DNA of 64,000 bases from Myxococcota bacterium (lineage in GTDB: Bacteria; Myxococcota_A; UBA796; UBA2385): the NCBI GenBank assembly GCA_044344255.1, contig JBIJDH010000024.1, positions 62,812-126,811 on the forward strand. Reading direction: 5' to 3'. Of this stretch, positions 17,434 through 62,053 are shown one piece after another. The stretch's first letter is position 1. Each line of letters opens with the position of its first letter. The translations under genes and the position numbers were made by a program. Below the pieces are notes generated by a model that saw only the letters and a program-made list of their open reading frames with translations, ran no database searches and was not told the DNA's origin.

Positions 17434-18854
17434 GACAGGCGCTCCAGCCAACGCTCGACCTCTGCGCTCAGAGGGCCCTCGCGCTCCAAATCGCTCCGGA
17501 ACCAAGACACGAGCTCGGCGCGCCCCTCGACCGGCCAGGGTGACCGAACGGTGGACAACAGCACGGCCCGAACCAACGGCCGCCGGAGCGCCCGCGCGGA
17601 CACCTCTCGCACCAAGGCCGCGGCGAGCTCGCGGTCGTACGCGTACTGCATGTCGTCCGCGAGCTGAGCGAGGACCACCGCACCCTCACGTGGGCGCCCC
17701 CTCTCGTCGGCCGCGAGGGCTCGAGACACGGCTGCCGAGACGAGCGAGCTCCGCCGCATCGCCTCCCCCCGCGCTGCGGCGAGCACCAGGGGATCGACCG
17801 CCCCATCCTCCCCGGGGAGCGCTGGCAGCGGAGCGCAGCCCGGCGAAGGGGAATCCACCGGCGGGAGCTCCACATCGCACGCAGCATACTCCTTGGTGTC
17901 CACCAGGTGCCGATGGGTCGCCCAACGCGGGAGGTAGCCCTGATTGACGAGCTGATATTGGGCGACCCCAACGGTCGCCTTGAAGACATCCACGACGCGC
18001 CGGACACGCTCCGCGCAGGCTGCGGAGCCGCCCGCAGGCCCCCCATCCGGCGGGCCGAACAGTTCAATCAGGCCCTGCAACGGAACGAGCAATTCGGCAG
18101 CGAACCCCTTTGCGCGCGACTCCGCGAGGTCCTTGGTCTCCGACCCGTCCTCCTTGTCTTCGGTGTCCAGGGTGAGGACAGTGCCACCCGCAGCCGGCGA
18201 ATCATAGAGAATGTGGCAAATCTCGTGGGCGATGTCCACACGCGCTGACCTGGGCTCGATTGGCCGCGCCTCCGCGATCACCGCAGCCGCAGCCGAGCGA
18301 TCGGCAGCCATCACCGCCACCGCGCGCAAGCCCGAGGATCGAAGACGACGATGGAGGACCGGTATCCCCAGCTCCGCGGCGAGCGAGACCAGGTCGGGTA
18401 CCGGCTTGCTCCCCAAGCCCCGCTCGTGCCGCAGCCGACGGGCGAGGCGATAGCCCTGTTGAGCTGCCGCCGTGGGGTAGGTGGCCGAGATGACAACCGG
18501 GAGAGGGGGGGGCAACCGCGCGTCCGGGGAGCAAGCGCGCGCGGCCCAGTCGCGACCGCAGCGCAGCGCCTCCAGGAGCGTCGAAACATCCGCGCCGTCC
18601 AGCGAGCCGAAGGGACCTCGAAATGTGAAGAACCTCGCGATGGACGGATCATCATCGGCCGGGGTGAGCACATCAAAGGCCCACGCGCCCCGGTGCAAAC
18701 CCAGCGCCGCCGTCACCGCTCGCACGACCTCGGGCTCCCGCTCTGGCGCGCTCTCCGCACGGAGGAGTTCCGCCACCGAGACCTCCGCCCCGGCCGCGAG
18801 CTCCGCAGCGGACAAGCCCGCGAGGTGCCGCAGCGCGGAGAGATCGCGAAACAT
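17430..18854 (-). CDS. XRE-HTH plus ImmA/IrrE (peptidase M78) fusion with C-terminal helical extension
   Basis: N-terminal LRHLAGLSAAELAAGAEVS HTH, IAHEICHIL (HExxH), ESRAKGFAAELLVP; strong AGGAGG RBS. Confidence 0.88.
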   Translation of the reverse strand: MFRDLSALRHLAGLSAAELAAGAEVSVAELLRAESAPEREPEVVRAVTAALGLHRGAWAFDVLTPADDDPSIARFFTFRGPFGSLDGADVSTLLEALRCGRDWAARACSPDARLPPPLPVVISATYPTAAAQQGYRLARRLRHERGLGSKPVPDLVSLAAELGIPVLHRRLRSSGLRAVAVMAADRSAAAAVIAEARPIEPRSARVDIAHEICHILYDSPAAGGTVLTLDTEDKEDGSETKDLAESRAKGFAAELLVPLQGLIELFGPPDGGPAGGSAACAERVRRVVDVFKATVGVAQYQLVNQGYLPRWATHRHLVDTKEYAACDVELPPVDSPSPGCAPLPALPGEDGAVDPLVLAAARGEAMRRSSLVSAAVSRALAADERGRPREGAVVLAQLADDMQYAYDRELAAALVREVSARALRRPLVRAVLLSTVRSPWPVEGRAELVSWFRSDLEREGPLSAEVERWLERLS

Positions 18855-26045: not shown

Positions 26046-27326
26046 GTGTCCCCCCTCCGCTCCGCCCTCCCCTCTGCCCTGGCCGCCCTCCGCCGCCCCG
26101 GGCCCCGTCGCCTGCTCATCGCCGTCTTCACCGCGATGTACCTTGTGTTCGGGCTATACCGCTCGGGGGCCACCGTCTTCGCCGGCGGCGGGGGCCGCGA
26201 CTACGCGACCTACCACTACGCCGTCCAGGAGGCCGTCGCCGGGGGCGATCCCTACGACACCGCGGCGCTCGGCCTGCGGAGCGCCGCCGAGGGCACGCGC
26301 AAGTCTGTCCACCCCTTCTTCTACCCGCCCCCCTTCCTCTTCTCGATGCTCTGGGCGGCCCCCCTCTCGCTCATGACGGCCTATCGGGTCTTCTGGGCGG
26401 TCAATCAGCTCCTCCTCGTGGGCACGCTCTTCGCCCTCCGGCGCTGGTTCGGGCCCTCGCTGCTCCTGCTCGCCTTCGTCGCCGCCACCTTCAGCCCGAT
26501 CCCCGACAACGCCAAGATGGGGCAGGCCAACCTGCTCGTGCTGCTGCTCGCGGTGGCCGGGCTCGCGCGCGGCAGCGGCGGCCTCGTGGGGGCGGCGGCG
26601 ATGGCCAAGATGTCGCCGGCCCTCTACCTCGTGGGCTGGCTCTCTCGCCGAGAGTGGCGGCCGGTGCTCACCGCAGGGGTCACGGCGATCGGGCTCTCCC
26701 TCCTCGCCCTGCCGCTCGTGCCGCTCGAGACCCAGCGGATGTTCTACCTCGACATCCTGCCGGGCTTCTCCTCGGGCGACTACCACGGCTTGAAGGTGAA
26801 GATCACCCTGCCCGCCAACCACTCGATCCCCGATCTCTGGAACCAGCTCTGGCCGGGGCCGAGCGGGCACGCCCTCTCCCCCGCCGCCCAGCGCGCCTCC
26901 TCGCTCTCAAGCCTCGGCCTGCTCGGCCTGCTCGGCCTCGTGGGCGCGCGCACCCGCGGGGACGCCGACCCGCTCCGCCTCGCCAACCTGATGGGCGCGC
27001 TCACCGTGCTCATGCTGATCACGCCGGTCTACACCTACGAGCACCACCTCACGCTGCTGATCCTGCCCGTCGTCGCCCTCGGCGCCGCCATCGAGCGGGG
27101 GCGCCTCGGCCGGGGCTGGGTCGTGCTGGTCCTCGTGGCCTACTTCTTCGTCGCCTGGCCCCTCGCTTGGCTCCGCGGCCTCCAAGACCTCGTGCCCCTC
27201 CTCGACTGGCCCCTCCAGGAGAGCAAGTTCCTGGGGGCGCTCCTGCTCGGCCTCGCGAACGCGCGGGTGGCCTGGAGCCCGGCCCCGCCCGCCGCCGCCG
27301 ATCAGCCCGCCCGCGCCGAGAGCTGA
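26046..27326 (+). CDS. GT87 (DUF2029) family membrane glycosyltransferase
   Basis: RDYATYH, PFFYPPPF, GQANL, AKMSP and YEHHL motifs; many TM helices. Confidence 0.85.
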   Translation: MSPLRSALPSALAALRRPGPRRLLIAVFTAMYLVFGLYRSGATVFAGGGGRDYATYHYAVQEAVAGGDPYDTAALGLRSAAEGTRKSVHPFFYPPPFLFSMLWAAPLSLMTAYRVFWAVNQLLLVGTLFALRRWFGPSLLLLAFVAATFSPIPDNAKMGQANLLVLLLAVAGLARGSGGLVGAAAMAKMSPALYLVGWLSRREWRPVLTAGVTAIGLSLLALPLVPLETQRMFYLDILPGFSSGDYHGLKVKITLPANHSIPDLWNQLWPGPSGHALSPAAQRASSLSSLGLLGLLGLVGARTRGDADPLRLANLMGALTVLMLITPVYTYEHHLTLLILPVVALGAAIERGRLGRGWVVLVLVAYFFVAWPLAWLRGLQDLVPLLDWPLQESKFLGALLLGLANARVAWSPAPPAAADQPARAES

Positions 27327-27400
27327 TCGAGCAGGCCGACGAGGATGTGGGCCTGGTACCAGGCGTCGTAGTCGGCGCGGTGCTTCTGACCGAGGTCTTC
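27254..27400 (+). repeat. 147-bp direct repeat, left copy
   Basis: Identical to 32017-32163 except A27319 versus C32082. Confidence 0.97.
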
Positions 27401-27440
27401 AGACGGTCAGCGCCTTACAGGAGGCCCGCTGGGAGAGGCC
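27302..27440 (-). pseudogene. 3' remnant of the DEDDh exonuclease gene with an internal deletion
   Basis: 27302-27400 matches the exonuclease 3' end. 27404-27440 matches 32388-32424 with 3 mismatches. Confidence 0.8.
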
Positions 27441-27768
27441 ATGACCATGAGCACGGGCATCAACACTGGGTCGCCGGATTCCAGCGGGAAGAGGCGTTTC
27501 GGTGGACGTCCGCGGGGGAGGTCGGCAAGACCAGCTCAACCGACGGATGCCTGAGCCTTGACTCCCGACCTCCACCCCGACTGGACATCGCGGGCGGCAT
27601 CACGGTGTCACCGAGAAGAGGTCGAAGAGGTCGATGGTGCCCCAGTCGGAGATGCCGGGCAGAATTGGCATGAGGATTTCGCCGAGGTGGGTGAAGTTGG
27701 TGCCCTGAAGGTCGCTGTTGAAGAAGGCGATCATGGCGGCGTTCTGCCAGGGCGCGAGGCCGGGAGCC

Positions 27769-28260
27769 TCAGCCGCTTGTCGGGTAGTCGCACTCAGCAT
27801 ACGCTCCCGGCTCGGAGCACTCCTCCGGGCTTCGCCTCGTGAGATCGCACCACTCCTCCACGCCCATGTCGCCGCTGAAGACCCTGTCCAGCGCCGTCAG
27901 GTAGCGGCAGTCCCTTTCGCGAGTACACATCGCCACCGCACAGGGGTCATAATCGTCGCACTCGGCAGTAGGATCGGAGCGGATTTCCTCCCAGGCGACA
28001 ATTCCATTCGCCACGCAGGTGTCGTAGTAATCTCTAAATTCCTCGAGAGAATACCCATCGTCACACAGCCGAGAGCTCGCACAGTCCACGGCCGCATCCA
28101 CCTCATCGTACCGATAGATGTCGAAGGTGTCGCACTCATCTTCGCCCGGGTAACCAGCCGCGCAGTCCTCATACGCCTCTTCGGGTCTGTCTCCTTTGTC
28201 CGAGCATGCGCAGAGCAGTAGGATGGCGAGCAACCCCAGGCGCTGGACGACGACCCACAT
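27769..28260 (-). CDS. acidic Cys-rich lipoprotein
   Basis: RLGLLAILLLCA-C lipobox, about 12 Cys in the mature part, lower GC. Confidence 0.7.
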   Translation of the reverse strand: MWVVVQRLGLLAILLLCACSDKGDRPEEAYEDCAAGYPGEDECDTFDIYRYDEVDAAVDCASSRLCDDGYSLEEFRDYYDTCVANGIVAWEEIRSDPTAECDDYDPCAVAMCTRERDCRYLTALDRVFSGDMGVEEWCDLTRRSPEECSEPGAYAECDYPTSG

Positions 28261-28299
28261 GTTACTGCTGAAGGCGAATGCGGTTGTGGTGCTTGGAGG

Positions 28300-28530
28300 G
28301 GCAGCCGACTTCCTCGCGAGGTCTTTCATGGTGCGGTAACCGCTGGTAAGATAGGCGGTTCCGAGCTCCACCTTCACGCCATCGACGATGTGGGGGTCGC
28401 TCTGCCCGCCGACATCGCCGGAGGCCTCGAAGAGATCGACCTTGAGGTGGGAGAGGGGGCGGAGCTGCGCCGCGAGGGAGACACCGGCCGGTCCGGCGCC
28501 GATGATGGCGATGCGGAGGTTCTGGGTCAT
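28300..28530 (-). pseudogene. N-terminal fragment of an FAD-dependent oxidoreductase
   Basis: MTQNLRIAIIGAGPAGVS..LFEASGDVGG..VELGTAY gives only the dinucleotide-binding start; no remainder follows. Confidence 0.75.
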
Positions 28531-28705
28531 GCGGTCGCTTAACCCGGCGCATTCAGATGCACCGATGCGCCTCTCGAGTCTCTTTGACTTTTCGGTCTTC
28601 GGCTCTCCCGCCCAGGCGGGCGTCCTCACGGAGCTCGAAGGGCCGGAGCACAAGGTCGATGAGGGCCAGGTGATCGACGTGGAGGAGCCGCCGCAGCGCT
28701 GAGCC

Positions 28706-30571
28706 TCAGGCGGGGAGGGTGGGAGCGACGAGGGCGGCGAGGTCGGGGCGGCCGCGTGTGAGGGCAGCCTCGTGCCAAAGAGAGCGTTCGGCGGCAGGGA
28801 GGGTAGCGAGCACCTCAGTCGACCATAAGTCGTGGCCGTCTATGATCAGTCGCCACCCGGTGCCCGGCTTCAAATACGCATCGACGGTGTTCGCCAAGCT
28901 GGAGCTATGCGAGATGAGCGTTCGATAGGCCGCCGCCGCGGCTGCACAATTTTCACGACTGAGAAAGGTAATTTCGAAAATCTTAAATAGAAGCGATAGC
29001 ACCAGCAGTTTGCGGATTACATCTGTGCCGACCCCGGGTAGGGTCTTGATCAGATTGCTTGCGATTGATTGTTGTTGAGGGGATGTCGTCCAGAAGATCG
29101 ATCCCAGGAAGTTGGCGAGGACCATGCCGATGTCGAAGCGCTGGATGAGCTCGTCGTACGAGCTGTTCGCACGGACCCACTCGCCGAACAAGATGAGTGC
29201 GAATACCTGACAAGCTGCAGTTGTAACACACGGCTGGCGCAAATATAGTTCGTTTGCCAGCTCAGCGGCTCGAGTAGGGCTGTCCTCCATTTCGTTCGCG
29301 ATTGCTTTGAACAGGTGGCTATCCACCAGAATCTCGTCTCCTTCCCACATCAAGGCTTCATGAAACCAAGATTGGTGACCTTCGGGGGTTCCTTGGCGAG
29401 CCAGAAGCTCTGACCGGGTGTGCCAGAAGCGCAAGAACCGAATGAATACCTTTGGCGCCTGGTCCGGACGTTTCATGGCTCGTGCGATACGCCAGAGCGG
29501 ATCGCGCAGCTCGTAGAAGCTCTCTCGCCCTACGCTGTGGCTCTGCACGAGGCCATCGCGCCTAAGGAAGCGGAGCTGACCGGAGACGGTGCCCTGCGTC
29601 GAGAAGGTGGCATCGACGAGCTCACTCACGGTCAGCGGTCGCCAGCTCTCGCTCAGGCGCTCAAGCAGGGCCTGCTGGCCGGGGGCGCGGGCGCGGATCT
29701 GCTCCTGGAAGTAGGGGGTGAGCTCATCCCCGAGCTGGTAGAAGGCTGTCTCCAGCTCGTCGAGGCTCTCCCTCGTCAGGTAGGGGAAGAGCAGGGCCAT
29801 CCCACGGGGAGAGCCGCCGATCAGGTGGTGAATTGCTCGCACACGGGCGAGGCCAAGCGGGCTCTGGAGGCGCTCGGCGAGGCCGGGGTCTGGCCGGTCC
29901 TCTGCCAGGGTGAGGAGCATGTCTCGACACCCCTCCGGGCTGAGCGGCCCGACGGGCTCCTCGATCCACATGCGGTAGAAGGGCCGGTCCCGATTGTGGA
30001 AGTCGTCGCCGGTGGCCTGGGCGGTGGCGAGCACGCTCCAGCGCTGTTCGGTGACGATGCCGCGCAGGCGCCACTGCTCCTCAGTGCTCATCGCCGAGAG
30101 GATGCGGTCGAGGTTCTCGAGGCCGATGAGGAAGGGCCTCGCCTGGAGACGCCCCTCGATGAGGCGGAGAGCCCGCTCGACGGCCTCGGCGCGGTCACTG
30201 CCGCGAAGGAGTGCCACCTGACTCGCCGCGGTGGGCAGCCCCTCCACCTCGGGTAGGCGGGAGAGCAGGCGGGCGAGGAGGTCGAGCAGGCTGCCCACAT
30301 GCTCCTCCTCATCGAGCGCGGCGACCACCGGGGCCTGGGGCAATGCCGCCGCCCGGATGCGCGCCAGGAGCACCGCGAAGAGGTGGCTCTTCCCGCTGCC
30401 GCGGGCTCCAACGAGGACGACGTGCCGGGCCCCCCCTTCGGCGAGGGTGCCGACCAGGCCCTCCACGACGCCGTCGACCAGCGACCCGCGCTCGACCAGG
30501 CGGCGCTCCAGGAGCTCGGTGGGCAACAGATGGGGGGAGAAGCGGGAAAACTGGGGGCGGGTCAGAGACAT
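28706..30571 (-). CDS. P-loop ATPase (STAND/AAA-like) with winged-helix and divergent C-terminal helical region
   Basis: Walker A GARGSGKSH, Walker B LIGLENLD, GGSPRG, and wHTH LTVSELVDATFSTQGTVSGQLRFLRRDGLV..GRESFYEL. Confidence 0.85.
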   Translation of the reverse strand: MSLTRPQFSRFSPHLLPTELLERRLVERGSLVDGVVEGLVGTLAEGGARHVVLVGARGSGKSHLFAVLLARIRAAALPQAPVVAALDEEEHVGSLLDLLARLLSRLPEVEGLPTAASQVALLRGSDRAEAVERALRLIEGRLQARPFLIGLENLDRILSAMSTEEQWRLRGIVTEQRWSVLATAQATGDDFHNRDRPFYRMWIEEPVGPLSPEGCRDMLLTLAEDRPDPGLAERLQSPLGLARVRAIHHLIGGSPRGMALLFPYLTRESLDELETAFYQLGDELTPYFQEQIRARAPGQQALLERLSESWRPLTVSELVDATFSTQGTVSGQLRFLRRDGLVQSHSVGRESFYELRDPLWRIARAMKRPDQAPKVFIRFLRFWHTRSELLARQGTPEGHQSWFHEALMWEGDEILVDSHLFKAIANEMEDSPTRAAELANELYLRQPCVTTAACQVFALILFGEWVRANSSYDELIQRFDIGMVLANFLGSIFWTTSPQQQSIASNLIKTLPGVGTDVIRKLLVLSLLFKIFEITFLSRENCAAAAAAYRTLISHSSSLANTVDAYLKPGTGWRLIIDGHDLWSTEVLATLPAAERSLWHEAALTRGRPDLAALVAPTLPA

Positions 30572-31734
30572 CGGTGGAGCTTCCAGAAGCGACGAAGGCA
30601 GTCGAGGCGGAAGAGCCAGCGCTCATTGCGCCGATCGAGGTACTGGTCGCGCCGCAGCCACTGGAGGACCTCGACGAGCCGGTCTCCAGGGAACAACCGA
30701 CGAAGCTCGGTGATGGACTGGCCTGTCGGATGAAGGCAGAGGTGGTCGAGCAGATGCAACGCGAGGTCATGATCCTCGGCGCTCAGCGTGCGCTTCATCC
30801 GCTGGACGTAGTGCTCGAGCTCCAGCGGATCCTGATCATTGTCGAGGAGGGCCTCGAGTGCCTGATCGGCGGCGTGGCGGGTGTAGCGCCGCTCCATGCG
30901 CACCCGCTCGGCGATGTGCTGCAGCACGAAGGGGTGCCCTTCGGAGATACGCGAGAGGTGCTGCGCCAGATCGGCCGCGTTGGCGGACTCCTTCTCGAAG
31001 CTCGCCACGAGGCGCCCGGCCAGCTCCAGCGCTCCGCCGGGCTCGAGGACCGGGAGGACCTCCCGGGCCATCTTGTTGTCGGGGTCATTCGTGTACCCGC
31101 GGGCCTGCAGCCCGCGGATGATCTCGTGCAGCCCGATCGAGCCGGTGTAGACGAGGCGCAGCCGGGGCCAGCGCTGGGCGTCGCGCAGGAAGTCGAGGAG
31201 GGCGGTGACCTCGCGGTCCCCCCGCACGGTGACGAGGCCGTCGAGGAAGATGGTGAGCTCATCCCAGACGAGGACGACGATCCGCTCTTTTTCGTCAGCC
31301 CACTTCTGTAGCCCCTCGAAGGCCTTGTCGAGGACGGGCTGCCACTCCGCCCCCGGCAGGCGGAGCGCCAGCTTCACCCCCTTGAGCTCCACGCCCCCGG
31401 CGAGGCCCTCGACGTACCGGGCGAAGGGGAGGTAGCGCCGGAGGAAGCCACCCGTCAGCCCCTCGATCTGCTCCAACACGGCCTGCACGAAGTCCGGCAG
31501 GCCGCGCGGCACCTTCTCCAAGCTCGCGTAGCGGAGCGCGAAGTGGGCAGGCTGGTGCGCCGGATCGGCCATGCGGCGCCAGAGGCTCGTCTTGCCCATC
31601 CGGCGCGGGGCGGTGAGCACGAGGGAGCGCGTCTCCAGGATCTCCCGGAAGCGGCGAATCAGCTCATCCCGGCCGACGACCTGCTCCGGGCTGAGATCGC
31701 CGCCGGGGTTCGGGGTCAACGCGGTGGTGGACAT
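30562..31734 (-). CDS. P-loop ATPase (ATPase_2/AAA_16-like) with C-terminal winged-helix
   Basis: VVGRD, Walker A APRRMGKTS, Walker B VLVWDE, YTGSIGL and GHPF motifs; overlaps the downstream ATPase by 10 nt. Confidence 0.88.
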   Translation of the reverse strand: MSTTALTPNPGGDLSPEQVVGRDELIRRFREILETRSLVLTAPRRMGKTSLWRRMADPAHQPAHFALRYASLEKVPRGLPDFVQAVLEQIEGLTGGFLRRYLPFARYVEGLAGGVELKGVKLALRLPGAEWQPVLDKAFEGLQKWADEKERIVVLVWDELTIFLDGLVTVRGDREVTALLDFLRDAQRWPRLRLVYTGSIGLHEIIRGLQARGYTNDPDNKMAREVLPVLEPGGALELAGRLVASFEKESANAADLAQHLSRISEGHPFVLQHIAERVRMERRYTRHAADQALEALLDNDQDPLELEHYVQRMKRTLSAEDHDLALHLLDHLCLHPTGQSITELRRLFPGDRLVEVLQWLRRDQYLDRRNERWLFRLDCLRRFWKLHRCL

Positions 31735-31781
31735 CGTCGTTCCAAGGGGGGACCGGGAAGGCCCTCGACCCATGCTGGAAT

Positions 31782-31810
31782 CAACATATGTCAAAAACAA
31801 CATATGTCAA
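31782..31810 (-). promoter_or_regulatory. tandem 13-bp repeat forming a likely promoter/operator for the ATPase pair
   Basis: CAACATATGTCAA at 31782-31794 and 31798-31810, each with an ACATATGT palindrome. Minus strand reads TTGACA-N16-TATGTT. Confidence 0.65.
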
Positions 31811-31899
31811 CATCGACATGCATATCCCCCACCCCGCCGCAGCAGGATGCACCGAGGTGCTTCGCCGATCTCCTCGCATTCCCCGCCGGGGCCGTCGTG

Positions 31900-32016
31900 C
31901 ATGGCCTCCAGTCGGGCGTCCTGTAGCCGTCGAAGCAGGCGCTGCGCGGCGTTGATGGCCGGGTCGAGGGCCTCCACCCGGTCGAGGCAGGCGTCGATCT
32001 CCAGGGGGTCCACCCC
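31900..32016 (-). pseudogene. amidase N-terminal scrap
   Basis: VDPLEIDACLDRVEALDPAINA resembles the amidase N-terminus; compare LVEAQLARVDAYNPGLNA in the intact amidase at 43375-44916. Confidence 0.55.
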
Positions 32017-32163
32017 CGCGAACGCGCGGGTGGCCTGGAGCCCGGCCCCGCCCGCCGCCGCCGATCAGCCCGCCCGCGCCGCGAGCTGATCGAGCAGGCC
32101 GACGAGGATGTGGGCCTGGTACCAGGCGTCGTAGTCGGCGCGGTGCTTCTGACCGAGGTCTTC
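32017..32163 (+). repeat. 147-bp direct repeat, right copy
   Basis: Matches 27254-27400 with one mismatch. Confidence 0.97.
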
Positions 32164-32700
32164 GGCGGGGAGCCGCAGCCGCTCGGCCAGCACCTCCTTG
32201 TTGCTGTCGAACCAGTGCACCCCGAGGGCGCCGGTCGCCATCGCCTTCGTGCAGAGCGCCTTGTAGCCGAAGGGGTTCGGGAGCTCCTCGGCGGCGTAGG
32301 CGTAGCTCACGAAGCTCCAGTCAAAGGGCGCGTTGTGGCCCACGAAGGAGGGCTTCGTGCGGGGCTTCGTCCGTGCCCGCACCCAGGCGGTCAGCGCCTC
32401 GCAGAAGGCCCGCTGGGAGAGGCCCTCGGCAGCCAGCTTGCCCTGGTCGAGGCCGTGGATCGCGGCGGCGCGGGCGTCGAAGCGGGGCGCCCCGGGACGG
32501 AGCTCGGCGTAGAAGGGGTTGCCCTCGATGACGAGGTGGCCCTGCTCGTCGGGGGAGACCACCACCGCGCCGAGCGACACCATGTCGTAGAGCCCTGGAA
32601 CGGGGCCGTTGCACTCGATGTCGATGCAGAAGTACGTTGTGCGGGACTCCCGATGGCGGGAGGAGGGGGCGGCGGGGTGGGAGACAGGCAGGCCGGTCAT
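32065..32700 (-). CDS. DEDDh 3'-5' exonuclease (RNase T / RNase AS-like)
   Basis: CIDIECNG (ExoI), VGHNAPFDW (ExoII) and HRADYDA (ExoIII) motifs. Confidence 0.88.
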   Translation of the reverse strand: MTGLPVSHPAAPSSRHRESRTTYFCIDIECNGPVPGLYDMVSLGAVVVSPDEQGHLVIEGNPFYAELRPGAPRFDARAAAIHGLDQGKLAAEGLSQRAFCEALTAWVRARTKPRTKPSFVGHNAPFDWSFVSYAYAAEELPNPFGYKALCTKAMATGALGVHWFDSNKEVLAERLRLPAEDLGQKHRADYDAWYQAHILVGLLDQLAARAG

Positions 32701-33951
32701 GACGAGCTCCGAGCGAGGCTGGGCGATGGGCCCGGTCGGGGGCCCGCGTCGCCGCGGCTTATCCAGCCGCCGCGGAGCCCGCGCCAGCGTCAAGTCGAAG
32801 AGGCCCTCCGTAAGCTCATCCTCCTGAGCTACCTCCTCTCCATCCCCGGCCTGCTGCTCAGCACCTGGCTCCTGCTCGGCGCGGGCGTGCTCCGCCACGG
32901 CGGGGCCACCGCGGTGGCCGCGGGCGCGGCGCTGCTCCTCCTCCTGCCGGCGATGGGCGTGGCCAGCCTCTTCCCGCGGCGGCTCCACGGCCTCGGCCTC
33001 GGCCTCCTGCTCTGGCCGCTGGGGCTGCTGATCGGCTTCCCGCTCTACTTCCCCGCCGAGCGCGGCCCGGCCCTCGTCGCCGGGCTGAGCGTGGCCGCAG
33101 GCGCCCTCCAGCTCCACCCGGACCCCTCGATCGCCCTCGCCCTCGACCGCCTGCTCCCCGCCGTTGAGGGCAGCCGCCCGCCCGCCGTCCTGGCCGAGTC
33201 CACGCAGGTCGAGCCCCTGGCCCTCGCCACCGCCGCCCCGGAGCCCGCCGCCACGAGCGGCCGCCTCGGCGAGGGCGAAGACGAGGTGGTGCTGCCCTAC
33301 GAGGGCTCCGGCAGCTCGCTCCTCGTGCAGATCAGCCTCGAGCAGGGCAGCCGCAGCCAGGACGTGGTGATGATCTTCGACACCGGGGCCTCGATCACCA
33401 CCCTCGACACCGAGACCCTGCGCAGCCTCGGCGTCCGCGTGCCGGCCGACGCCCCCGTCCTCGAGGTCCACACCGCCGGCGGCGACCGCCAGACCCGCCT
33501 CGTCCGCCTCGACCGCCTCTGGATCGGCGGCTTCGAGGTGGAGGGGGTCACGGTGGGCGTCTGCGACGACTGTCGGATGGGCCGCACGGTGGGCCTGCTC
33601 GGCCTCAACGTGTCGAGCCGCTTCCTCGTCACGGTCGATCAACAAGAGAAGGAGCTCGTGCTGCAGCCCCGCGCGGGCGTGCTCGACGCCACCGCCGACG
33701 TCTCGCCCTGGGTCGACCTCTCCGCCACCGCCACCCGCTGGGAGGGCGGCCGCACCGAGGTGGAGGTGCGGGTGCTGAACAAGAGCGACCACCCCATCTC
33801 CACCGTCGGGGTGCGCATCGGCTGCGGGGCCGGCTTCCACACCGACGTCGGCCCGATCGCGCCCGGCGCCGAGGCCGAGAAGCCCGTCGCCCTCCCCCTC
33901 GGCACCGACTGCGAGGCCTACACCGTGGAGCTCGACCGGGCGCGATGGTGA
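32653..33951 (+). CDS. membrane-anchored retropepsin-like aspartyl protease (start uncertain)
   Basis: N-terminal TM helices; MIFDTGASITT, VHTAGG and GLLGLN motifs. Confidence 0.8.
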   Translation: MAGGGGGGVGDRQAGHDELRARLGDGPGRGPASPRLIQPPRSPRQRQVEEALRKLILLSYLLSIPGLLLSTWLLLGAGVLRHGGATAVAAGAALLLLLPAMGVASLFPRRLHGLGLGLLLWPLGLLIGFPLYFPAERGPALVAGLSVAAGALQLHPDPSIALALDRLLPAVEGSRPPAVLAESTQVEPLALATAAPEPAATSGRLGEGEDEVVLPYEGSGSSLLVQISLEQGSRSQDVVMIFDTGASITTLDTETLRSLGVRVPADAPVLEVHTAGGDRQTRLVRLDRLWIGGFEVEGVTVGVCDDCRMGRTVGLLGLNVSSRFLVTVDQQEKELVLQPRAGVLDATADVSPWVDLSATATRWEGGRTEVEVRVLNKSDHPISTVGVRIGCGAGFHTDVGPIAPGAEAEKPVALPLGTDCEAYTVELDRARW

Positions 33952-33967
33952 GCCCCCAGGAGCGAGG

Positions 33968-34381
33968 GTGAGCGCGGGCCGACCGCCGCCGAACCCCTTC
34001 TGGGTGCTCGGCCTGCCGGCCACGGCCAGCCGCGTCGAGCTCGAGCGGGCCGGGCAGCGCCTCCTCGCCCAGCTCGCCGTCGGCGCGCGGTCGGCGCGGT
34101 GGACCGAGACCCCGGGCGGGCCGCTCGAGCGGGACGAGGCCCTCGTCCGCGACGCGCTCGCCCGCCTCCGCGACCCCGAAGCGCGCCTGATCGCCGAGCT
34201 GCTCTACGCTGCCGCCGAGCTGCTCTCCGCTGTCCCAGCGCCTCCCGCTGCTACTCCCGCTGCGCCTCCCGATGCGACTCCCGCTGCGCCTCCCGATGCG
34301 ACTCCCGCTGCGCCTCCCGCTGCGCCCGAACCGGCCGGCCTGACCGGGCTGCACGAGGCCCTCGGCCTCCTCCCGAGCTAG
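33968..34381 (+). CDS. hypothetical protein with J-domain-like start and PAAPPDAT repeats
   Basis: NPFWVLGLPATAS..ELERA; no HPD motif. Confidence 0.65.
   Translation: MSAGRPPPNPFWVLGLPATASRVELERAGQRLLAQLAVGARSARWTETPGGPLERDEALVRDALARLRDPEARLIAELLYAAAELLSAVPAPPAATPAAPPDATPAAPPDATPAAPPAAPEPAGLTGLHEALGLLPS
34238..34326 (+). repeat. 24-bp in-frame tandem repeat (about 3.7 copies)
   Basis: GCGCCTCCCGATGCGACTCCCGCT units. Confidence 0.9.
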
Positions 34382-35872: not shown

Positions 35873-38191
35873 TCACCGGCGCGCGGGGGGCGCCTCGAAC
35901 GTGACCCGCCCGAGCGTGACCGCGCTCCAGGGCGCTGGGCGCGACCACCAGCCGGGTGGGGCGGAGATCGGCAGCCCGTCTGTCTCATCGACGAGGACGG
36001 ACGTGCCGCGCCCGAGGGTGAGGACCACCCGCAGCCCGGCCTCGGGCGGGTCGACCCACAGCAGGCGGCGCGCCCGGCCCGTCCCCTGCACCTCATGGGG
36101 GCCCTCCGCGCCCTCCACCGACAGGACGCGGCTGCCGGGCGCCGGTCGAAAGGCGAGCGCGCGGGCCCCCCGCCGGGAGCGGAGGCGGAGGGCGACGCTG
36201 TCCCCGAGCCAGGCCTCCACCGAGACCTCGGGCGGCAGCACGTCCGCGTCCGGGGCCGGCGCCTCGAAGGCCTCCCCGCCGAAGAGCATCACGTCGGGCG
36301 AGGCGTCGGCGGCCGGGGCGCCGTCGGGGACGAGCTCCGCCAGCCACCCGGCGCGGCGGGCCTCTCCGCTGATCCAGCGCGGGCCGCGCTCATCGGTGAG
36401 GTGGACGAGGTGATAGGGCTGCGGCCAGCGATCCGGGGCCTGCTCCACGAGCGCGACCCCGACGAGCCCGAGCAGCACGAGGCCGAGCAGCAGCGGAAGG
36501 GCCCGGCGACCGGGCGTGAGCGAGGCGGCGCCCGGGAGGCCGAGCAGCGGGCCCACCGCCATCGCCAGCGGCGACAGGCCCACCCCCCAGGCGAGGAGCG
36601 GCAGCGTGGCCCCGAGCAGCGCCGCGAGGGGCACGAGCAGCAGCAGCGCCGGGGGCAGGCTGAGGAGCGCGGTCCCCGCCTCGGGCAGCCCGCGCGGCCA
36701 CCTCAAGCCCGGAGAGCGGGAGGCGCGGGCCCGCAGACCCAAGCACACGAGGCCGAGGGACAGGCCGAGGGCCGGCAGCACGAAGGGATAGGCGGCGCCG
36801 GGCAGGGTGAAGGCCACCCAGAGGGACAGGCCCACCCAGGCGAGGCCGCCGCCGAGCGTTGGCCCGCCGCCCGCCGCCCACCGCCCGCCGAGCGCCGACA
36901 GGGCGAGGGCGGGCCAGAGGCCGAGCAGGCTGAGCAGCGGCCGCAAGACCGCGGCGAGCGGGCTGTCCATCCCCTCGTGGGCCGCCTCCACCGGCGACAG
37001 GGCCGACAGGACCGACAGGGCCCCGTAACAGAGGCCCACGGCCCCCACGGCCGACAGGGGGGCCGAGAGGAGCCCGAAGAGGAGCGGGCCCAGCCGCGGC
37101 CGCGCGGCCAGCAGGGCGAGGAGCCAGAGCACCGCCGCGCTCACCGCGAGGATCGGCATCATCACGGCGTCGAGCACGACGAGGCCGCCCGGCAGGTTGA
37201 AGTAGACCGGGTCGGCCGCGCCGCCCCATCGGTCCGCCGCCGTGCCGGTCGCAGGGGCCGCCGCGGGGCCGGTCGGACGGGAGAGGTCGGCGTCGGCGAG
37301 GCCGAGGGACAGGGACCGGGCCAGGGCGGCCTGGTGCTGGAGCGTGCGCCGATCGAGGCGTTCGGGCCGATCCTCGGAGCTGTGATAGACCCGCAGCCCG
37401 TCGACGAAGGCGAAGTCGAGCCCCGGCACCCCAAACAGCGCCGACAGGTCGGTGTCATTCGGGAGGAGGGAGAAGACCGCCGGACCGAGCGAGCCCGCCC
37501 GCGCGTGGGGCAGCTCGGCGAGGGCCCGCACCAGGGCGCCGCTCCCGGGCCCGGTGTGGAACATCAGCGCCGCCCCGCCCGCGCCCCGCCCCTCAAAGTT
37601 GAGCACGGCCCCCACCGACGACCAGCGGGGGTGCTCCCGCTGAAAGAGGGTCGCGCCGAGCAGCCCGGCCTCCTCCCCGTCGGTGAGCAGCACCACCACG
37701 TCATTCCGGGCGGGGGGCCCGGCGCCGATCGCCCGCGCGGCGGCGAGCACCGCGGCCACCCCCGCCCCGGCGTCGGCCGCGCCCGCGGCGTTGGGCACGC
37801 TGTCGGTGTGCGAGACGAGGAGGAGGGTGTCCCGGCGCTCCACCCCCGCCCGCCGGGCGACGAGGTTGCGCACCCGCCCGCCGAGGAGCAGCCCCCCGCG
37901 CTCGACCATCACCTCCCCCACCTGCTCCTCGACGTCGAAGCCGGCGGCGCGGAGCTCCTCGGCGAGCCCGTCCTGGACGGCCGCGAGGGCCGCCGAGCCC
38001 GTGGGCCGCGGCGCCCCGGCCACCTGCGCGACCGTCCGGTCGAGCGCCGCCGCCGTCTCCGCGTCCACCGCCCCCGACGGCGCGCGGGCGAGGTCGAGCC
38101 CGAGCAGCACGAGCAGCCCGACCCAGCCCGCCCACAGGGTCAGGCCCAGGCGGGGGGCCGCGGACACGGGGGCTTCGCGGGGCGCGGTCAT
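35873..38191 (-). CDS. M28 family membrane metallopeptidase
   Basis: SHTDSV, GAADAGAG, DGEEAGLLGA, NFEGRG, PNDTD and YHS motifs followed by a TM bundle. Confidence 0.92.
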   Translation of the reverse strand: MTAPREAPVSAAPRLGLTLWAGWVGLLVLLGLDLARAPSGAVDAETAAALDRTVAQVAGAPRPTGSAALAAVQDGLAEELRAAGFDVEEQVGEVMVERGGLLLGGRVRNLVARRAGVERRDTLLLVSHTDSVPNAAGAADAGAGVAAVLAAARAIGAGPPARNDVVVLLTDGEEAGLLGATLFQREHPRWSSVGAVLNFEGRGAGGAALMFHTGPGSGALVRALAELPHARAGSLGPAVFSLLPNDTDLSALFGVPGLDFAFVDGLRVYHSSEDRPERLDRRTLQHQAALARSLSLGLADADLSRPTGPAAAPATGTAADRWGGAADPVYFNLPGGLVVLDAVMMPILAVSAAVLWLLALLAARPRLGPLLFGLLSAPLSAVGAVGLCYGALSVLSALSPVEAAHEGMDSPLAAVLRPLLSLLGLWPALALSALGGRWAAGGGPTLGGGLAWVGLSLWVAFTLPGAAYPFVLPALGLSLGLVCLGLRARASRSPGLRWPRGLPEAGTALLSLPPALLLLVPLAALLGATLPLLAWGVGLSPLAMAVGPLLGLPGAASLTPGRRALPLLLGLVLLGLVGVALVEQAPDRWPQPYHLVHLTDERGPRWISGEARRAGWLAELVPDGAPAADASPDVMLFGGEAFEAPAPDADVLPPEVSVEAWLGDSVALRLRSRRGARALAFRPAPGSRVLSVEGAEGPHEVQGTGRARRLLWVDPPEAGLRVVLTLGRGTSVLVDETDGLPISAPPGWWSRPAPWSAVTLGRVTFEAPPARR

Positions 38192-38898
38192 CGGGTGAGG
38201 AGCCGCACCTCACCGGTCTCGGTGTCCACGCTCACGCCCATGAAGCGCCCGCGGGAGCACGTGCCGGTGTTGGCGAGGACCCCGCCCGGCAGCTCCAGGC
38301 GGACGGGGATGTGGGTGTGCCCCATGACCACCACCTGCACGCCCTGCTCCGCCATCAGCGCCTGGGCCGCCCGGCCGTAGGGGCCCGCGGGCCCCTTGTG
38401 GAGGCGGCCCTTCACGGTCACGTCTCGGTCTTCGAGCACCTCCGCCACCGCCCGGAGCCCCACCGCGCGGGCCTGACCGGTGAACCAGGTGCCCGCGGCC
38501 GACAGGCGCGGCGCCCGCCCGATGACCGGGTCGTAGGCGTCTCCGTGGACGAAGAGCGCGCGGCAGCCGGGCTCTCCGAGGGTGAGCGACCGCGCGGCTC
38601 CCAGCACCTCGTGGGTGATGGGGTCATGGTTGCCGCAGATCCAGCGGTACTGCGGCTCTTCGAAGCGCTGGGTGAGGCGCGCGGTGCGCTCCCGGGCCAG
38701 GGCGAGGGCCCGCCGCGCCGAGGCTGGCCCGGGGAGAGGCCCGTGGTCGGTCTGGTAGATGTCCCCGAGGAGCACGAGGGCGTCGTGCTGGGCCTCGAGG
38801 ACGTCCAGCCACCGCAAGAAGTCGCCCTCCGCGTGCCGAAAGGTGTCCGCGTGGGCGCGGTCGCCGATGTGGAGGTCTGACACAGCGGCGATGCGCAT
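38188..38898 (-). CDS. calcineurin-like metallophosphoesterase (LpxH-like)
   Basis: SDLH, LGD, GNHD, VHGD and MGHTH motifs. Confidence 0.9.
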   Translation of the reverse strand: MRIAAVSDLHIGDRAHADTFRHAEGDFLRWLDVLEAQHDALVLLGDIYQTDHGPLPGPASARRALALARERTARLTQRFEEPQYRWICGNHDPITHEVLGAARSLTLGEPGCRALFVHGDAYDPVIGRAPRLSAAGTWFTGQARAVGLRAVAEVLEDRDVTVKGRLHKGPAGPYGRAAQALMAEQGVQVVVMGHTHIPVRLELPGGVLANTGTCSRGRFMGVSVDTETGEVRLLTR

Positions 38899-38915
38899 GG
38901 CGGGCTCGGCGAGCG

Positions 38916-38948
38916 GGGGCAGACACGGGGCAGACACGGGGCAGACAC
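38916..38948. repeat. 11-bp tandem repeat GGGGCAGACAC x3
   Basis: Directly visible between the RNA ligase and phosphoesterase genes. Confidence 0.9.
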
Positions 38949-38962
38949 GGGGGCCGGGGAGG

Positions 38963-39937
38963 CTACTTCCGAAGGAGGTAGCCCTCCCCGTGGAGCTTGA
39001 GGATGACACGGCCGACCCGGTCATCCCAGCGCTCTCGGATGGGCCGTACCACGAAGCCCTCCCGCACGTGGGCGCCGTCGGCGATCACCGTCGGCCCCTC
39101 CGCGAGGTGGCTCAGCCCCATCGACCAGGGCCCCCGATAGAGCCGCGGCACCACCGGGAGCTCCCAGACCGCGAGCAGCCGGTCGGCCTCGTCTACGTCC
39201 AGCCAGCGCCGGCTGCGCACGTCGAGCACGTCAAAGACCGCCCCCTTCACCATCCCCTGCCCGAGGCCATAGCGGAGGTCCTGCACGGCGCCGTAGGCCT
39301 CGAAGTACACGGCGTAGGGGGTGTCCCGCAGCTTCTCCTCGAGCCTCCAGCTCCGGGCGACCCGGGCCCAGAGGTTGTTGCCGTCCGGCGCCTTGAAGAG
39401 GTTGCGCGAGCCCACGTGCAGGCGCCCCTCGTGCCACACGGCGCGGCCGTTGGCGCCGTGCACCTTCTCGGTGAGCACCACCTCCTCCCCCTCCACGAGC
39501 ACCTCCGGCCAGCGCCGCACCCCCTCGATGTCATAGACGGGCAGCACACCGGGGTCGGGCATGCCCTCCTCTTCGACGCCGGGGTCGGGTGGATCGTACT
39601 TCTCGATCCCGAGGCGCTCCCGAACGTCCTCCCCCTCGGCCCAGCCGGGATCGGCGGGGAGGAGCAGCCCCATCGAGAAGATGCCCCGCAGCCGCAGGGC
39701 CTTGATCCGGGCCCAGCCGTCCTTGTTGGCCTGCTTGGCCAGGAAGGCGAACATTGGCCGGCTCACGTGCAGGAGGGCGTCGACCGGGATGTAGACCGCG
39801 AGGTCGCCCTCGTGGAGCTCGCCCGTGCGGATGATGCAGGGGTACCCACCGTGCACGCGGGTGATGGACAGGCTGTCCGCGTTCGGGTGGGGGTTGATCT
39901 CGCCGACGCGGACCGTGTGGATGTGGAACTCGCTCAT
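38963..39937 (-). CDS. ATP-dependent RNA ligase, DRB0094-like family
   Basis: N-terminal HPNADSL..RIKALRLRGIFSMG module, motif I TEKVHGAN, FEAYG, FDV, REGFVVRP and ILK. Confidence 0.9.
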   Translation of the reverse strand: MSEFHIHTVRVGEINPHPNADSLSITRVHGGYPCIIRTGELHEGDLAVYIPVDALLHVSRPMFAFLAKQANKDGWARIKALRLRGIFSMGLLLPADPGWAEGEDVRERLGIEKYDPPDPGVEEEGMPDPGVLPVYDIEGVRRWPEVLVEGEEVVLTEKVHGANGRAVWHEGRLHVGSRNLFKAPDGNNLWARVARSWRLEEKLRDTPYAVYFEAYGAVQDLRYGLGQGMVKGAVFDVLDVRSRRWLDVDEADRLLAVWELPVVPRLYRGPWSMGLSHLAEGPTVIADGAHVREGFVVRPIRERWDDRVGRVILKLHGEGYLLRK

Positions 39938-40281
39938 CGTTCCTCCATCCCGACTCCCCTGGGCCAACCCCAGGCCGGAGCCGGGGTTGTTCAGGGTGAA
40001 TGCCCTGCTCCGACTACCTCTTCGTACCCACTCCTGCTGCGAAGTCGCGCGCGACACTGGCCGAGCGATCGGCGCAGAGGCGGGACGGGCAACGGGTGCA
40101 GGGGAGGGTCGGGGTCATGGCGAGGGAGTCTTCGCCTGCGGAGCGGGGACTGTCAAGGCGCCCCGCCGCCGAGCGGTCCGAGCGGGGGGCGGAGGGCGGA
40201 GGGCTCCGAGCTGGGGCGGGAACGGGGGCGGGGGGAGGGAACGGGGGTTGCCGCTGGCCAACGAATAGAGATCGCTGGCTT

Positions 40282-40308
40282 CTGATATTGCAGATGTTTC
40301 AGATGTCG
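40282..40308 (+). promoter_or_regulatory. 9-bp-periodic repeats, likely an autoregulatory operator of the HTH/PIN module
   Basis: CTGATATTG CAGATGTTT CAGATGTCG in an AT-richer patch just before the GGAG RBS. Confidence 0.5.
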
Positions 40309-40331
40309 TGTATCCATAGGGGAGAGGTGTC

Positions 40332-40787
40332 GTGATGACCGAGCTTGACCTCCATCTCCCCAGCCCCGAGCAGGCCCGACAGGCCGCCCGCGCTCTTCGC
40401 GCCTTGGCAACCTTGGGGGAGCAGCCTTCGCCTGCGCAAGTCCGGCCGGTGGGTGTGGGCGACGAGAGGTCGGTCGAGATCCCCGCTGACGCCCTCGCCG
40501 TCCTGATACAGGTGCTGGGCCACATGGCCGAAGGTGACGCCGTCACGGTGGTTCCAGTGCAGTCCGAGGTCACCGCGCAGCAGGCGGCAGACCTCTTGGG
40601 GGTGTCCCGCCCGTTCCTGATTGGCCTGGTGGACCAGGGTAAGATCGCCTGTCGCAGGGTGGGCACCCATCGGCGAATCCCCCTCGCCGACCTCCTCGCC
40701 TTCAAGCAGGCGAGCAGGGCTGAGCGGAGGGCCCTGGCCGACCAGCTCACGGAGGAGGCTCAGGTGCTCGGCTTCGGCTACAAATGA
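40332..40787 (+). CDS. excisionase-family HTH antitoxin
   Basis: EVTAQQAADLLGVSRPFLIGLVDQGKI..VGTHRRI and C-terminal ALADQLTEEAQVLGFGY. Confidence 0.88.
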   Translation: MMTELDLHLPSPEQARQAARALRALATLGEQPSPAQVRPVGVGDERSVEIPADALAVLIQVLGHMAEGDAVTVVPVQSEVTAQQAADLLGVSRPFLIGLVDQGKIACRRVGTHRRIPLADLLAFKQASRAERRALADQLTEEAQVLGFGYK

Positions 40788-61936: not shown

Positions 61937-62053
61937 AGTGAGCTCCTGGACTGGGCGAAGGACGAGCGGGGCGACAGGGCGGAGCGCCGCGTCGCCGGCC
62001 CCTCCACTTCACCTGCCGCGAGTCATGAGCCCAATACACGGTGTTCATTCACC

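Follow-up and report, generated by a model that had tools for sequence, protein, structure and literature searches.

A two-gene STAND/ORC-type ATPase cassette with a candidate operator array in a Myxococcota genome

NTPases of the STAND class, in the definition attributed to Leipe et al. in 2004, reportedly share a P-loop core with Walker A and Walker B motifs and a G-R-[DE] motif ahead of the P-loop strand. They are said to combine a nucleotide-binding domain, a helical domain and a winged helix (together the NOD module) with a C-terminal repeat sensor. We describe here two overlapping genes, called gene A and gene B, that encode such modules in a Myxococcota genome (contig JBIJDH010000024.1, positions 62,812 to 126,811; this stretch of 64,000 nucleotides (nt) is called the window, and positions below are counted within it). 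Among described systems, the nSTAND2 two-gene operon comes closest (Kaur, Iyer, Burroughs and Aravind, eLife 2021, PMC8195603). That operon is a computational prediction only, and in the passages of the paper considered here it consists of '??+STAND+wHTH' (wHTH, winged helix-turn-helix) followed by 'nSTAND2+wHTH+TPRs+HEPN', or by a form in which GT4 replaces TPRs+HEPN, the second protein being 530-640 amino acids (aa) long. The same passages place it in Proteobacteria, Sorangium and Nannocystis, and predict a counter-invader function, one inactive partner and a hetero-multimer.

An initial annotation of the window had proposed a coupled pair of dissimilar P-loop ATPases with winged helices, carried as the main cargo of an island, as a candidate STAND-like defence or signalling system. 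Our reading is that the locus is a horizontally mobile, autoregulated, two-subunit STAND/ORC ATPase sensor cassette with a probable role in conflict, a statement that we hold with about even confidence. The features on which the argument depends are the following.

Gene A: 30562..31734, minus strand, 390 aa, ORC/STAND-type (MNS/PF01637-like) ATPase with a C-terminal winged helix
Gene B: 28706..30571, minus strand, 621 aa, ATPase module paralogous to A, with an ArsR-type winged helix at residues 302-344 and a helical C-terminal region
C-terminal 227 codons of gene B: 28709..29389, minus strand, of foreign composition, helical, without detectable relatives
Putative operator/promoter array: 31779..31819, minus strand, two exact 13-nt boxes TTGACATATGTTG with a 16-nt period and a degenerate third unit upstream

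The paired ATPases and their relatives

Both genes lie as first drawn, on the minus strand, with a 10-nt overlap between gene A, which stops at 30562, and gene B, whose ATG is at 30571. The longest open reading frame (ORF) at gene A is 30562..31803 (413 aa), and alignment with 14 homologues puts the start at its M24, which is position 31734, the end originally given. The two genes would be translationally coupled. Both reading frames are intact, and every residue that is invariant in the family is present in the window's A and B. The source assembly, in 83 contigs and 8.18 Mb, is 95% complete.

To place the pair among its relatives, we searched with one peptide pattern for A, keeping one genome per species, which gave 345 stretches, 303 of them encoding a relative of A; the best 80 loci were kept. 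A homologue of B (its first ~390 residues) lies directly downstream of A on the same strand in 75 of the 80, and in the remaining five the available sequence ends 0-401 nt past gene A. In 56 of 74 measurable loci A and B either overlap or are separated by no more than 10 nt, with starts that are guesses based on ORFs. Pairing of A and B is thus far beyond chance, and the two-component unit proposed initially holds up, again without a recognisable effector. A large protein collection holds 40 relatives of B (itself included) and 19 of A. The 80 loci come mostly from Cyanobacteriota, and also from Myxococcota, Planctomycetota, Gemmatimonadota, Verrucomicrobiota, Armatimonadota, Acidobacteriota, Pseudomonadota and other phyla.

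The protein encoded by gene A has Walker A APRRMGKTS and Walker B VLVWDE. In 75 sequences R-R-x-G-K and D-E are unchanged, the family forms being xRRxGK[TS] and WDE, and there are further motifs in NPGG (invariant, at the N-terminus), GR[DE] and TGSIG. In the G-R-[DE] motif of the STAND class, R22 is invariant and G21 nearly so, followed by D or E. The AlphaFold2 (AF2) model from the family alignment has a pLDDT of 93 and a pTM of 0.90 and ends in a winged helix. Its closest folds are PAB2304 (2qen, TMq 0.62) and SSO1545 (2fna, TMq 0.59), followed by Orc1/Cdc6, MalT (8bob), CED-4, Apaf-1, RdrA and plant NLRs, and in a protein atlas it is structurally near clusters of ~390 aa with PF01637, AAA_35 and AAA_22 (TM 0.78-0.90). 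By sequence, Pfam gives only weak matches to AAA_16 and AAA_22, none reaching its threshold, and no match to PF01637 (ATPase_2, MNS clade) at E up to 1; distant relatives score 20-30 bits for PF01637 against a cut-off of 33.2. Gene A has no sensor domain. As judged from its sequence it keeps all catalytic motifs, and in the model proposed below it would be the catalytically competent small subunit.

Gene B is the larger partner, and its nucleotide site looks different. The Walker A motif is GARGSGKSH, with G58, G60 and K61 invariant in 63 sequences (GxxGxGK[ST]), and at the Walker B position stands L-E-N-L-D, with E152 and N153 invariant in the same 63. When W-D-E of gene A is aligned over L-E-N of gene B, the second acid is seen to be replaced by asparagine. 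The initial annotation had taken both Walker motifs as intact in both proteins; this is so for gene A and for the P-loop of gene B, but the Walker B of gene B is a non-canonical E-N. Because the P-loop is invariant while Walker B reads E-N, gene B probably binds nucleotide and hydrolyses it poorly or not at all. The G-R-[DE] motif is also present in gene B, where R28 is invariant; most members have VGR or VQR and the window copy has VER.

Gene B matches the Pfam ArsR-type family HTH_5 at residues 302-344 with 34 bits (cut-off 22). It falls just under the cut-off for AAA_16 (30.1 against 32.6 bits) and under that of an NCBIfam ArsR subfamily model (42 against 55). Solved structures found by sequence match its winged helix alone (ArsR proteins of the PDB). 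The AF2 model from the family alignment has a pLDDT of 83, and its fold matches are Orc1 on DNA (2v1u), 2qen, the Orc1/Cdc6 heterodimer (2qby), CED-4, Apaf-1 and the archaeal STAND-TPR protein 6mfv. A winged helix in each protein had been claimed from the outset, and both are found, in gene B by the HTH_5 match and in gene A by the AF2 model; they belong to the STAND/ORC module itself, as its usual third domain.

Dissimilar, the word first used for the two ATPases, does not describe them at profile depth. An hhalign comparison of the A and B families aligns 325 columns with a probability of 97.7% (E 1.8e-12) and covers the ATPase, helical and winged-helix domains. Since the family profiles align over 325 columns in all three domains, A and B are, at the level of profiles, remote paralogues. 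The AF2 models, the fold matches (CED-4, Apaf-1, plant NLRs, MalT, RdrA) and the alignment over three domains agree on the STAND NOD module, so that the STAND-class assignment was right: both proteins are STAND/ORC NTPase modules with nucleotide-binding domain, helical domain and winged helix.

The initial annotation had suggested prediction of a hetero-oligomer as a check, and a complex of A with B is indeed predicted. With residues 1-400 of B, three runs gave ipSAE 0.68, 0.66 and 0.68, and the best of three controls 0.00; among 157 solved complexes 116 attain the ipSAE mark used, and among 215 mismatched pairs 2 do, a calibration that is only approximate for the own alignments used here. At least 92% of contacts are common to the runs, and the pLDDT of the partner is at least 85. 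The predicted interface sets residues 5-15 of A, with the invariant N-P-G-G, against residues 30-50 of B, with invariant G46, A48 and R49. These interface residues of A and B are co-conserved, and their conservation is independent of the complex model. We therefore consider a heteromer of A and B to be predicted.

Candidate promoter array and sensor end

The two boxes TTGACATATGTTG upstream of gene A lie on the minus strand at 31810-31798 and 31794-31782, with ttt between them, and Tandem Repeats Finder reports a period of 16 and 2.6 copies at 31779-31819. The array contains a -35 hexamer TTGACA from 31810, a 16-nt spacer and a -10 hexamer TATGTT ending at 31783; a promoter scan of the region found 3 sites against 0.3 expected in shuffles. 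Allowing at most one mismatch, the 13-mer occurs only at these two positions in the 8.18-Mb assembly.

Similar arrays accompany the pair elsewhere. The usual box core in the family is ACGTACGT, that of the window being ACATATGT, and nearly all other loci have the consensus AATTGACGTAC[AG][TA]TAA upstream of gene A. Over the 80 regions of 160 nt upstream of gene A, ACGTAC counts 68 against 0.9 expected, with spacings between cores of 16 (36 times), 32 (8 times) and 48 (twice) and five other values. A position weight matrix finds matches in 75 of the 80 upstream regions (one match in 26, two in 37, three in 9 and four in 3), presence counts that are partly circular, the matrix having been built from the same 80 regions. 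Successive matches are 16 nt apart in 56 of 64 cases, and the background in the rest of the loci is 52 matches in 2.09 million positions. Each unit contains a -35-like TTGAC[GA] and a -10-like TAC[AG]AT. Because these hexamers of neighbouring units fall 16-17 nt apart at the 16-nt period, the array itself would be a sigma-70-type promoter. Of five whole genomes, three contain a single copy of the strict double box RACGTAY-N9-RACGTAY, in each case immediately before gene A, and two contain none; a reversed control pattern gave one match.

The boxes differ between cassettes. A second, divergent pair is present in the same genome (G000 contig C18; L002 518-3234, L008 1440-1530), with an A' of 322 aa that may be shortened and a B' of ~580-690 aa. 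Its array also has a 16-nt period, in 3-4 units, and a different box, TTGTACAGCGTT. A pair on a Segatella plasmid, at ~25% identity, has TGTATATAA-type boxes with a period of ~16 nt, and one on a Moraxella plasmid has three 18-bp palindromes instead of 16-nt boxes. At locus L047 there is a second 16-nt-spaced double box (12660-12691), ~60 nt upstream of a gene for a NosD/beta-helix protein. Both the pair and an AAA_21 (HEC-01A-like) gene precede this box, a PtuB-like HNH gene lies upstream of the pair, and L047 is the only locus at which a possible extra box target was seen.

Five loci lack canonical boxes: L020, L043, L048, L056 and L057. Where the boxes are canonical, the recognition helix of gene B, T-x-Q-T-A-S-S-Q-L-K, is near-constant; it departs most from this form in L020, L048 and L056, L043 having no B sequence. 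In the tree L020 and L048 fall in one clade and L043 and L056 in another, giving two independent events. This correspondence is suggestive of the winged helix of gene B reading the boxes. In the Myxococcota locus L057 the place of the usual boxes ahead of gene A is taken by a long inverted repeat, GGACATAAGTCAAAGTTGACTTATGTGGAC, present twice at ~7900-8090.

Beyond its ATPase module, gene B is variable. Complete B proteins range from 588 to 1262 aa across the family, and 34 of 75 B genes have tandem DNA repeats of 102 nt (34 aa, one TPR unit) in 2-16 copies that match one another at 69-97%. Among Microcoleus relatives with the same neighbourhood the copy number goes from 3.8 to 15.9, and Pfam annotates TPRs in family members. 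The window's gene B has helical hairpins, no TPR match in Pfam and no 102-nt array. Its GC content at third codon positions (GC3) falls from 0.87-0.91 in the 5' part to 0.61-0.66 from about codon 350, in a window that is 70-77% GC over most of its length. The low-GC part, at ~54% GC, keeps the order GC3 > GC1 > GC2 of a coding frame. For the last 227 residues, a word-based search and HMMER against 1.84 billion representatives returned only the protein itself. We infer that the sensor end was swapped by recombination with a donor of lower GC content. A HEPN domain in this C-terminus was considered and rejected, there being no family match and no conserved Rx4-6H in 11 close homologues.

Spread, insertion and surroundings

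Within the source's family, gene A has matches in 4 of 21 other genomes, all of them weak. A quick maximum-likelihood tree of gene A, with support from the Shimodaira-Hasegawa-like approximate likelihood ratio test (SH-aLRT) only, assigns the window protein, whose terminal branch is long (1.38), to a group of 11 supported at SH-aLRT 100. The clade comprises two Myxococcota, one metagenome-assembled genome (MAG) labelled Enterobacterales and eight metagenome proteins. Cross-phylum sister pairs occur, for example L047 (Pseudomonadota) with L081 (Planctomycetota) at SH-aLRT 99, and the Cyanobacteria are largely clustered, their 35 rows needing 4 changes. The A genes of L031 (a Leptolyngbyaceae MAG) and L041 (Anabaena azotica) are almost identical, on branches of 0.008 and 0.02, and the two loci have a Ser/Thr kinase and a bilin reductase as common neighbours; their near-identity points to recent transfer or to a mis-binned contig.

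In the window, the pair sits on a segment bounded by direct repeats, with the following features.

Left direct repeat, 147 nt: 27254..27400, final 24 codons of GT87 (plus strand) together with a duplicate of the exonuclease 3' end (minus strand)
Right direct repeat, 147 nt: 32017..32163, real 3' end of the DEDD exonuclease gene
Inserted 4.6-kb segment: 27401..32016, exonuclease-like remnant, truncated FAD-oxidoreductase, B, A, putative operator and ~200 nt of upstream sequence
Truncated FAD/NAD-binding amine-oxidase-like ORF: 27769..28653, minus strand, 294 aa, N-terminal Rossmann part only

The repeats are identical at 146 of 147 positions, are spaced 4763 nt apart and hold the 3' ends of two convergent genes, a GT87 glycosyltransferase (26046-27326, plus) and a DEDD exonuclease (32065-32700, minus). 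A 41-nt exonuclease-like remnant at 27400-27440 adjoins the left repeat and is 90% like 32384-32424. In its nucleotide arrangement, this repeat-flanked segment is the signature of an insertion that duplicated its target. The island of the initial annotation survives in this narrow sense, as a 4.6-kb segment between 147-nt direct repeats that carries the pair. No integrase is encoded on the segment, and exact-pattern scans of metagenome contigs did not find an empty site. The GT87 gene is present in 20 of 22 genomes of the family; no other window gene that was queried was found near it in six neighbourhoods, two of which are shortened by contig ends, and synteny is uninformative for the borders. 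In the truncated oxidoreductase ORF, Pfam matches NAD_binding_8 and Amino_oxidase at residues 50-122 only, and GC3 is 0.76; it is probably co-cargo and a pseudogene.

Circular or tandem forms were rejected: contig joints that go back 4759, 4763 or 4901 nt match the 147-nt and 41-nt repeats and the ends of the compared stretch. The DEDD exonuclease was rejected as an effector of the pair, as 330 nt and a separate promoter lie before gene A, the gene is unconserved beside the pair, and it was itself hit by the insertion. Long antisense ORFs overlap here (32110-33951, plus; 32065-34023, minus); by Pfam, the real genes are the exonuclease and, on the plus strand, one for an aspartyl-protease-domain protein (domain at ~33361-33613).

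The locus is present in contigs of many freshwater metagenome runs and, in part, in two RNA-library runs from one sample. The RNA-library contigs are identical to the window over 30213-30504 and 31282-31764, and none reaches the boxes. This coverage is compatible with a transcript starting just past the predicted -10, in contigs that show neither ends nor strand and may stem from DNA carry-over.

Elsewhere in the window, genes for a metallophosphoesterase and an RNA ligase (PF09414 with an OB fold) overlap on the minus strand within 38188-40787 and are followed by an HTH_17 (excisionase-like) gene on the plus strand; with GC down to 63-67% at 40-43 kb, this region may be another accessory or mobile segment. 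A 474-aa protein with an ImmA/IrrE-type M78 peptidase domain is encoded at 17430-18854 (minus), where local GC is 69%. At 62001-64000 the GC content falls sharply to 53-57%. No tRNA and no Rfam family was found in the window, this last part included.

Conflict sensor or regulatory switch

The model that we propose for the sensor cassette begins with the NPGG tail of A docking on the invariant G-x-A-R segment of B beside the P-loop strand, as the predicted complex has it. The A-B complex, most likely through the ArsR-type recognition helix of B, would bind the 16-nt boxes and repress its own synthesis. A ligand on the variable C-terminal region of B may then trigger nucleotide-dependent oligomerisation, as in switches of the NLR, Avs and MalT types, whereupon the operator would be freed or remodelled. 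The inferred part of this model comprises autorepression, ligand sensing, the binding of the boxes by B and any role in immunity. A bolder version, which we think rather unlikely, would make the pair a counterpart of paired NLRs. In it, a hydrolysis-dead sensor and an active helper would read a private array of 16-bp period, with the output at the level of DNA, through ligand-triggered, ORC-like polymerisation on or off the array. The result would be a self-contained bistable immune or allorecognition switch without an enzymatic weapon, and an orthogonal operator code in each cassette would let copies coexist without cross-talk.

Neighbouring genes were surveyed at 32 of the 80 loci, picked by eye as one per genus-level label, by taking the two nearest non-overlapping ORFs on each side (124 proteins). 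By Pfam these are mostly housekeeping, transport and signalling proteins. PADLOC (E up to 1e-10) matches 17 of the 124, of which seven are generic (three Ser/Thr kinases, an amino-acid transporter, RsmB, IS605 OrfB and a 3'-5' exonuclease); the other ten are defence candidates, in six loci (L020, L025, L034, L036, L047 and L082). Two distant pairs also keep defence-like company, QatD on the Moraxella plasmid and WYL and DUF262 genes on the Segatella plasmid. The defence role first suggested is unproven, and the housekeeping contexts that the initial annotation had said would speak against it are in part what we see, with a defence-candidate neighbour at 6 of 32 loci. Its decision not to assign a named system was sound. 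For gene B, PADLOC gives only weak matches at the level of domains, NCBIfam has nothing specific for A or B, and named defence systems were rejected on these grounds.

Several observations weigh against a mobile conflict sensor. At the remaining 26 of the 32 loci none of these neighbours resembles a defence gene. When all the ORFs within 4 kb are clustered, no conserved third gene emerges, only lineage-specific neighbours with Pfam names such as glutaminase, GDSL lipase, RsmB, penicillin-binding protein and pantoate ligase, and several cyanobacterial genera keep the pair beside the same glutaminase and GDSL-lipase genes, which resembles long vertical retention. No relative is found in 50,697 phage records, and 72,556 plasmids yield only five distant ones, for which reason a phage or plasmid origin was rejected. 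No PADLOC-DB 2.0 model matches gene A. Neither protein contains an effector domain by Pfam, PADLOC or NCBIfam, which agrees with the initial annotation in finding no nuclease, TIR or SIR2. The complex score is a measure of model confidence obtained with our own alignments, to which solved AAA+/ORC heteromers may add by likeness. The link between the helix and its presumed target boxes involves two lineages and could reflect general divergence, and the matrix counts given above are partly circular. The window's gene B has a chimeric C-terminus with pLDDT below 50 at 528-537 and 555-580, and this copy may be decaying. Finally, a related strain, on one 4670-nt contig of metagenome run X17, has a 134-nt deletion in gene A (30786-30919), and because of it we conclude from the sequence that the cassette is dispensable in at least one strain. 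That strain also has a GGA insertion behind 31746, and its deletion matches the 277-aa protein P0042 in the protein collection.

The main rival is a regulatory switch outside immunity, of the kind represented by MalT, GutR and AfsR, that would sense a metabolite or the state of the cell through the repeats of B and act on its own promoter and perhaps on unlinked targets with weaker boxes. We regard it as possible, with a lower probability than a conflict role. It would account for a sequence-specific operator inside the promoter, for an ArsR-type helix that scores above the cut-off, for MalT (8bob) among the fold matches of gene A, for the mostly housekeeping neighbourhoods with their long synteny in some cyanobacteria, and for the second double box upstream of the NosD-like gene at L047. 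Non-defence clades are, moreover, interspersed with defence clades in the part considered of a 2026 survey of STAND proteins (PMC13581612). No regulon is visible, however, as the double box occurs only at the pair in three of five genomes and its strict pattern is absent in two, and there is no conserved target gene. The distribution across phyla is patchy, some genomes have several copies bearing different boxes, and TPR units that are near-identical in DNA and shift in copy number between close relatives fit diversifying sensors better than a metabolite receptor. Overall, a conflict-type sensor is favoured by mobility, by the presence of several orthogonal copies in a genome and by TPR arrays that are homogenised and vary in copy number, while housekeeping neighbourhoods, long cyanobacterial synteny and the absent effector favour a resident regulatory switch. 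We consider a conflict role, against phages or mobile elements, somewhat more likely than a purely regulatory one, and defence itself plausible.

Two further explanations were weighed. The pair could serve a cryptic mobile element as its ORC-like initiator or maintenance module, with the boxes as iterons like the ORB repeats by archaeal orc1/cdc6. Orc1 on DNA (2v1u) and the Orc1-1/Orc1-3 heterodimer on origin DNA (2qby) are among the folds, tandem repeats directly adjoin the genes, and the segment is an insertion. We nevertheless find this very improbable, given that the operon's own promoter has its -35 and -10 hexamers in the boxes and that the loci are chromosomal, single and flanked by housekeeping genes. 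Nothing in the cassette encodes a helicase, a primase, an integrase or a partition protein, no phage record and hardly any plasmid has the pair, and TIGR02928 scores 11.4 bits against a cut-off of 181. There is also no sign of a circle, the contig joints being explained by repeats and stretch ends. Decay is the other possibility: the window copy would be a passenger, with a recombinant B whose C-terminus is meaningless, and the family might work elsewhere. The intact frames with all invariant residues kept, the two boxes that are exact copies, and a 227-codon frame at ~54% GC, unlikely to stay open by chance and ordered GC3 > GC1 > GC2, make this quite improbable; the RNA-library contigs identical over parts of A and B argue weakly in the same direction, DNA carry-over being possible. 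What speaks for decay are the C-terminal 227 residues without relatives and of foreign composition, the low model confidence in parts of them, the truncation of the adjoining oxidoreductase gene, the long terminal branch of 1.38 and the frameshifting 134-nt deletion in gene A of a closely related strain.

Comparison with known systems

Like Avs/AVAST and bNACHT, the family has a STAND core followed by a variable, TPR-like putative sensor, a patchy horizontal spread and fast-changing repeats. Each of those systems is one polypeptide that bears an effector (nuclease, SIR2, TIR or protease) at its N- or C-terminus, whereas here there are two paralogous subunits, no effector and a putative operator; no PADLOC model for Avs or NACHT passes for A or B. 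To our knowledge, the function of the archaeal ATPases PAB2304, SSO1545 and PH0952 is unknown as well. These proteins (2qen, 2fna and 6mfv; PF01637) are structurally the nearest to A and among the nearest to B, and they agree in size and in the order ATPase, helical domain, winged helix, although the solved structures show each of them singly. Archaeal Orc1/Cdc6 (2v1u, 2qby) share the AAA+ and winged-helix fold; there, the winged helix reads DNA and two paralogues can sit side by side on repeated boxes near their own gene. The differences lie in the profile scores, PF24389 giving 16.9 bits against 27 in addition to the low TIGR02928 score, in boxes that appear to be promoter elements and in the lack of a replication context.

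MalT, GutR and AfsR are ATP- and ligand-dependent oligomerisation switches that bind direct-repeat arrays at promoters. They differ from the present pair in being single proteins with separate terminal DNA-binding domains of LuxR or SARP type and known regulons, while the candidate reader here is inside the NOD module. In plants, sensor and helper NLRs can be two paralogues encoded side by side that form a hetero-complex, one of them specialised for sensing. The likeness to these pairs is an analogy only: the N-terminal signalling domains are different, sequence-specific operator binding is not known for them, and the pairing is not of common ancestry.

A system that is widespread, has two subunits and no visible effector, and brings its own cis-element across at least eight phyla lends itself to direct tests, since its DNA site, its promoter and both of its proteins are defined. 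It could serve as a simple system for how inactive and active STAND modules cooperate and for what an effector-less NLR-like sensor does. The box variants are specific to cassettes (ACGTACGT, ACATATGT and GTACAGCG), and if each is indeed read by the winged helix of its own cassette, the cassettes would together provide naturally occurring, orthogonal combinations of an operator with an ATP-switch regulator.

A search of a library of open-access papers for the box motif or the pair returned nothing beyond PMC8195603, and the portions considered of PMC7159879 and PMC13581612 contain no mention of the pair or of an operator array. The resemblance to the nSTAND2 operon, as far as the passages of PMC8195603 considered here describe it, extends to a mobile operon of two neighbouring genes on one strand that both encode an MNS-like STAND module with a wHTH, to one impaired partner and a predicted hetero-multimer, and to the occurrence in Myxococcota and Proteobacteria. 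In nSTAND2, however, the Walker A of the TPR partner is eroded (no GK[ST]) and its Walker B is ERFH, whereas here the P-loop GxxGxGK[ST] is invariant and one acid is lost. The HEPN and GT4 effectors of nSTAND2 are not found here by Pfam at E up to 1, and Rx4-6H is not conserved; the motif is also missing in the Moraxella relative. Pfam scans returned no nSTAND2 family, with nSTAND1, 3, 5 and 6 appearing as weak matches in relatives, and the passages covered make no mention of an operator array. Because the P-loop is intact and neither HEPN nor GT4 is present, comparison with the features given in those passages sets the present cassette apart as a sister variant of the nSTAND2 operon and not a member of it. 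What is new here is the conservation of the pair, the putative operator array that travels with it, the predicted complex, the variability of the putative sensor end of gene B and the insertion; the paralogy of the two ATPases and the Walker B state of gene B correct the initial annotation.

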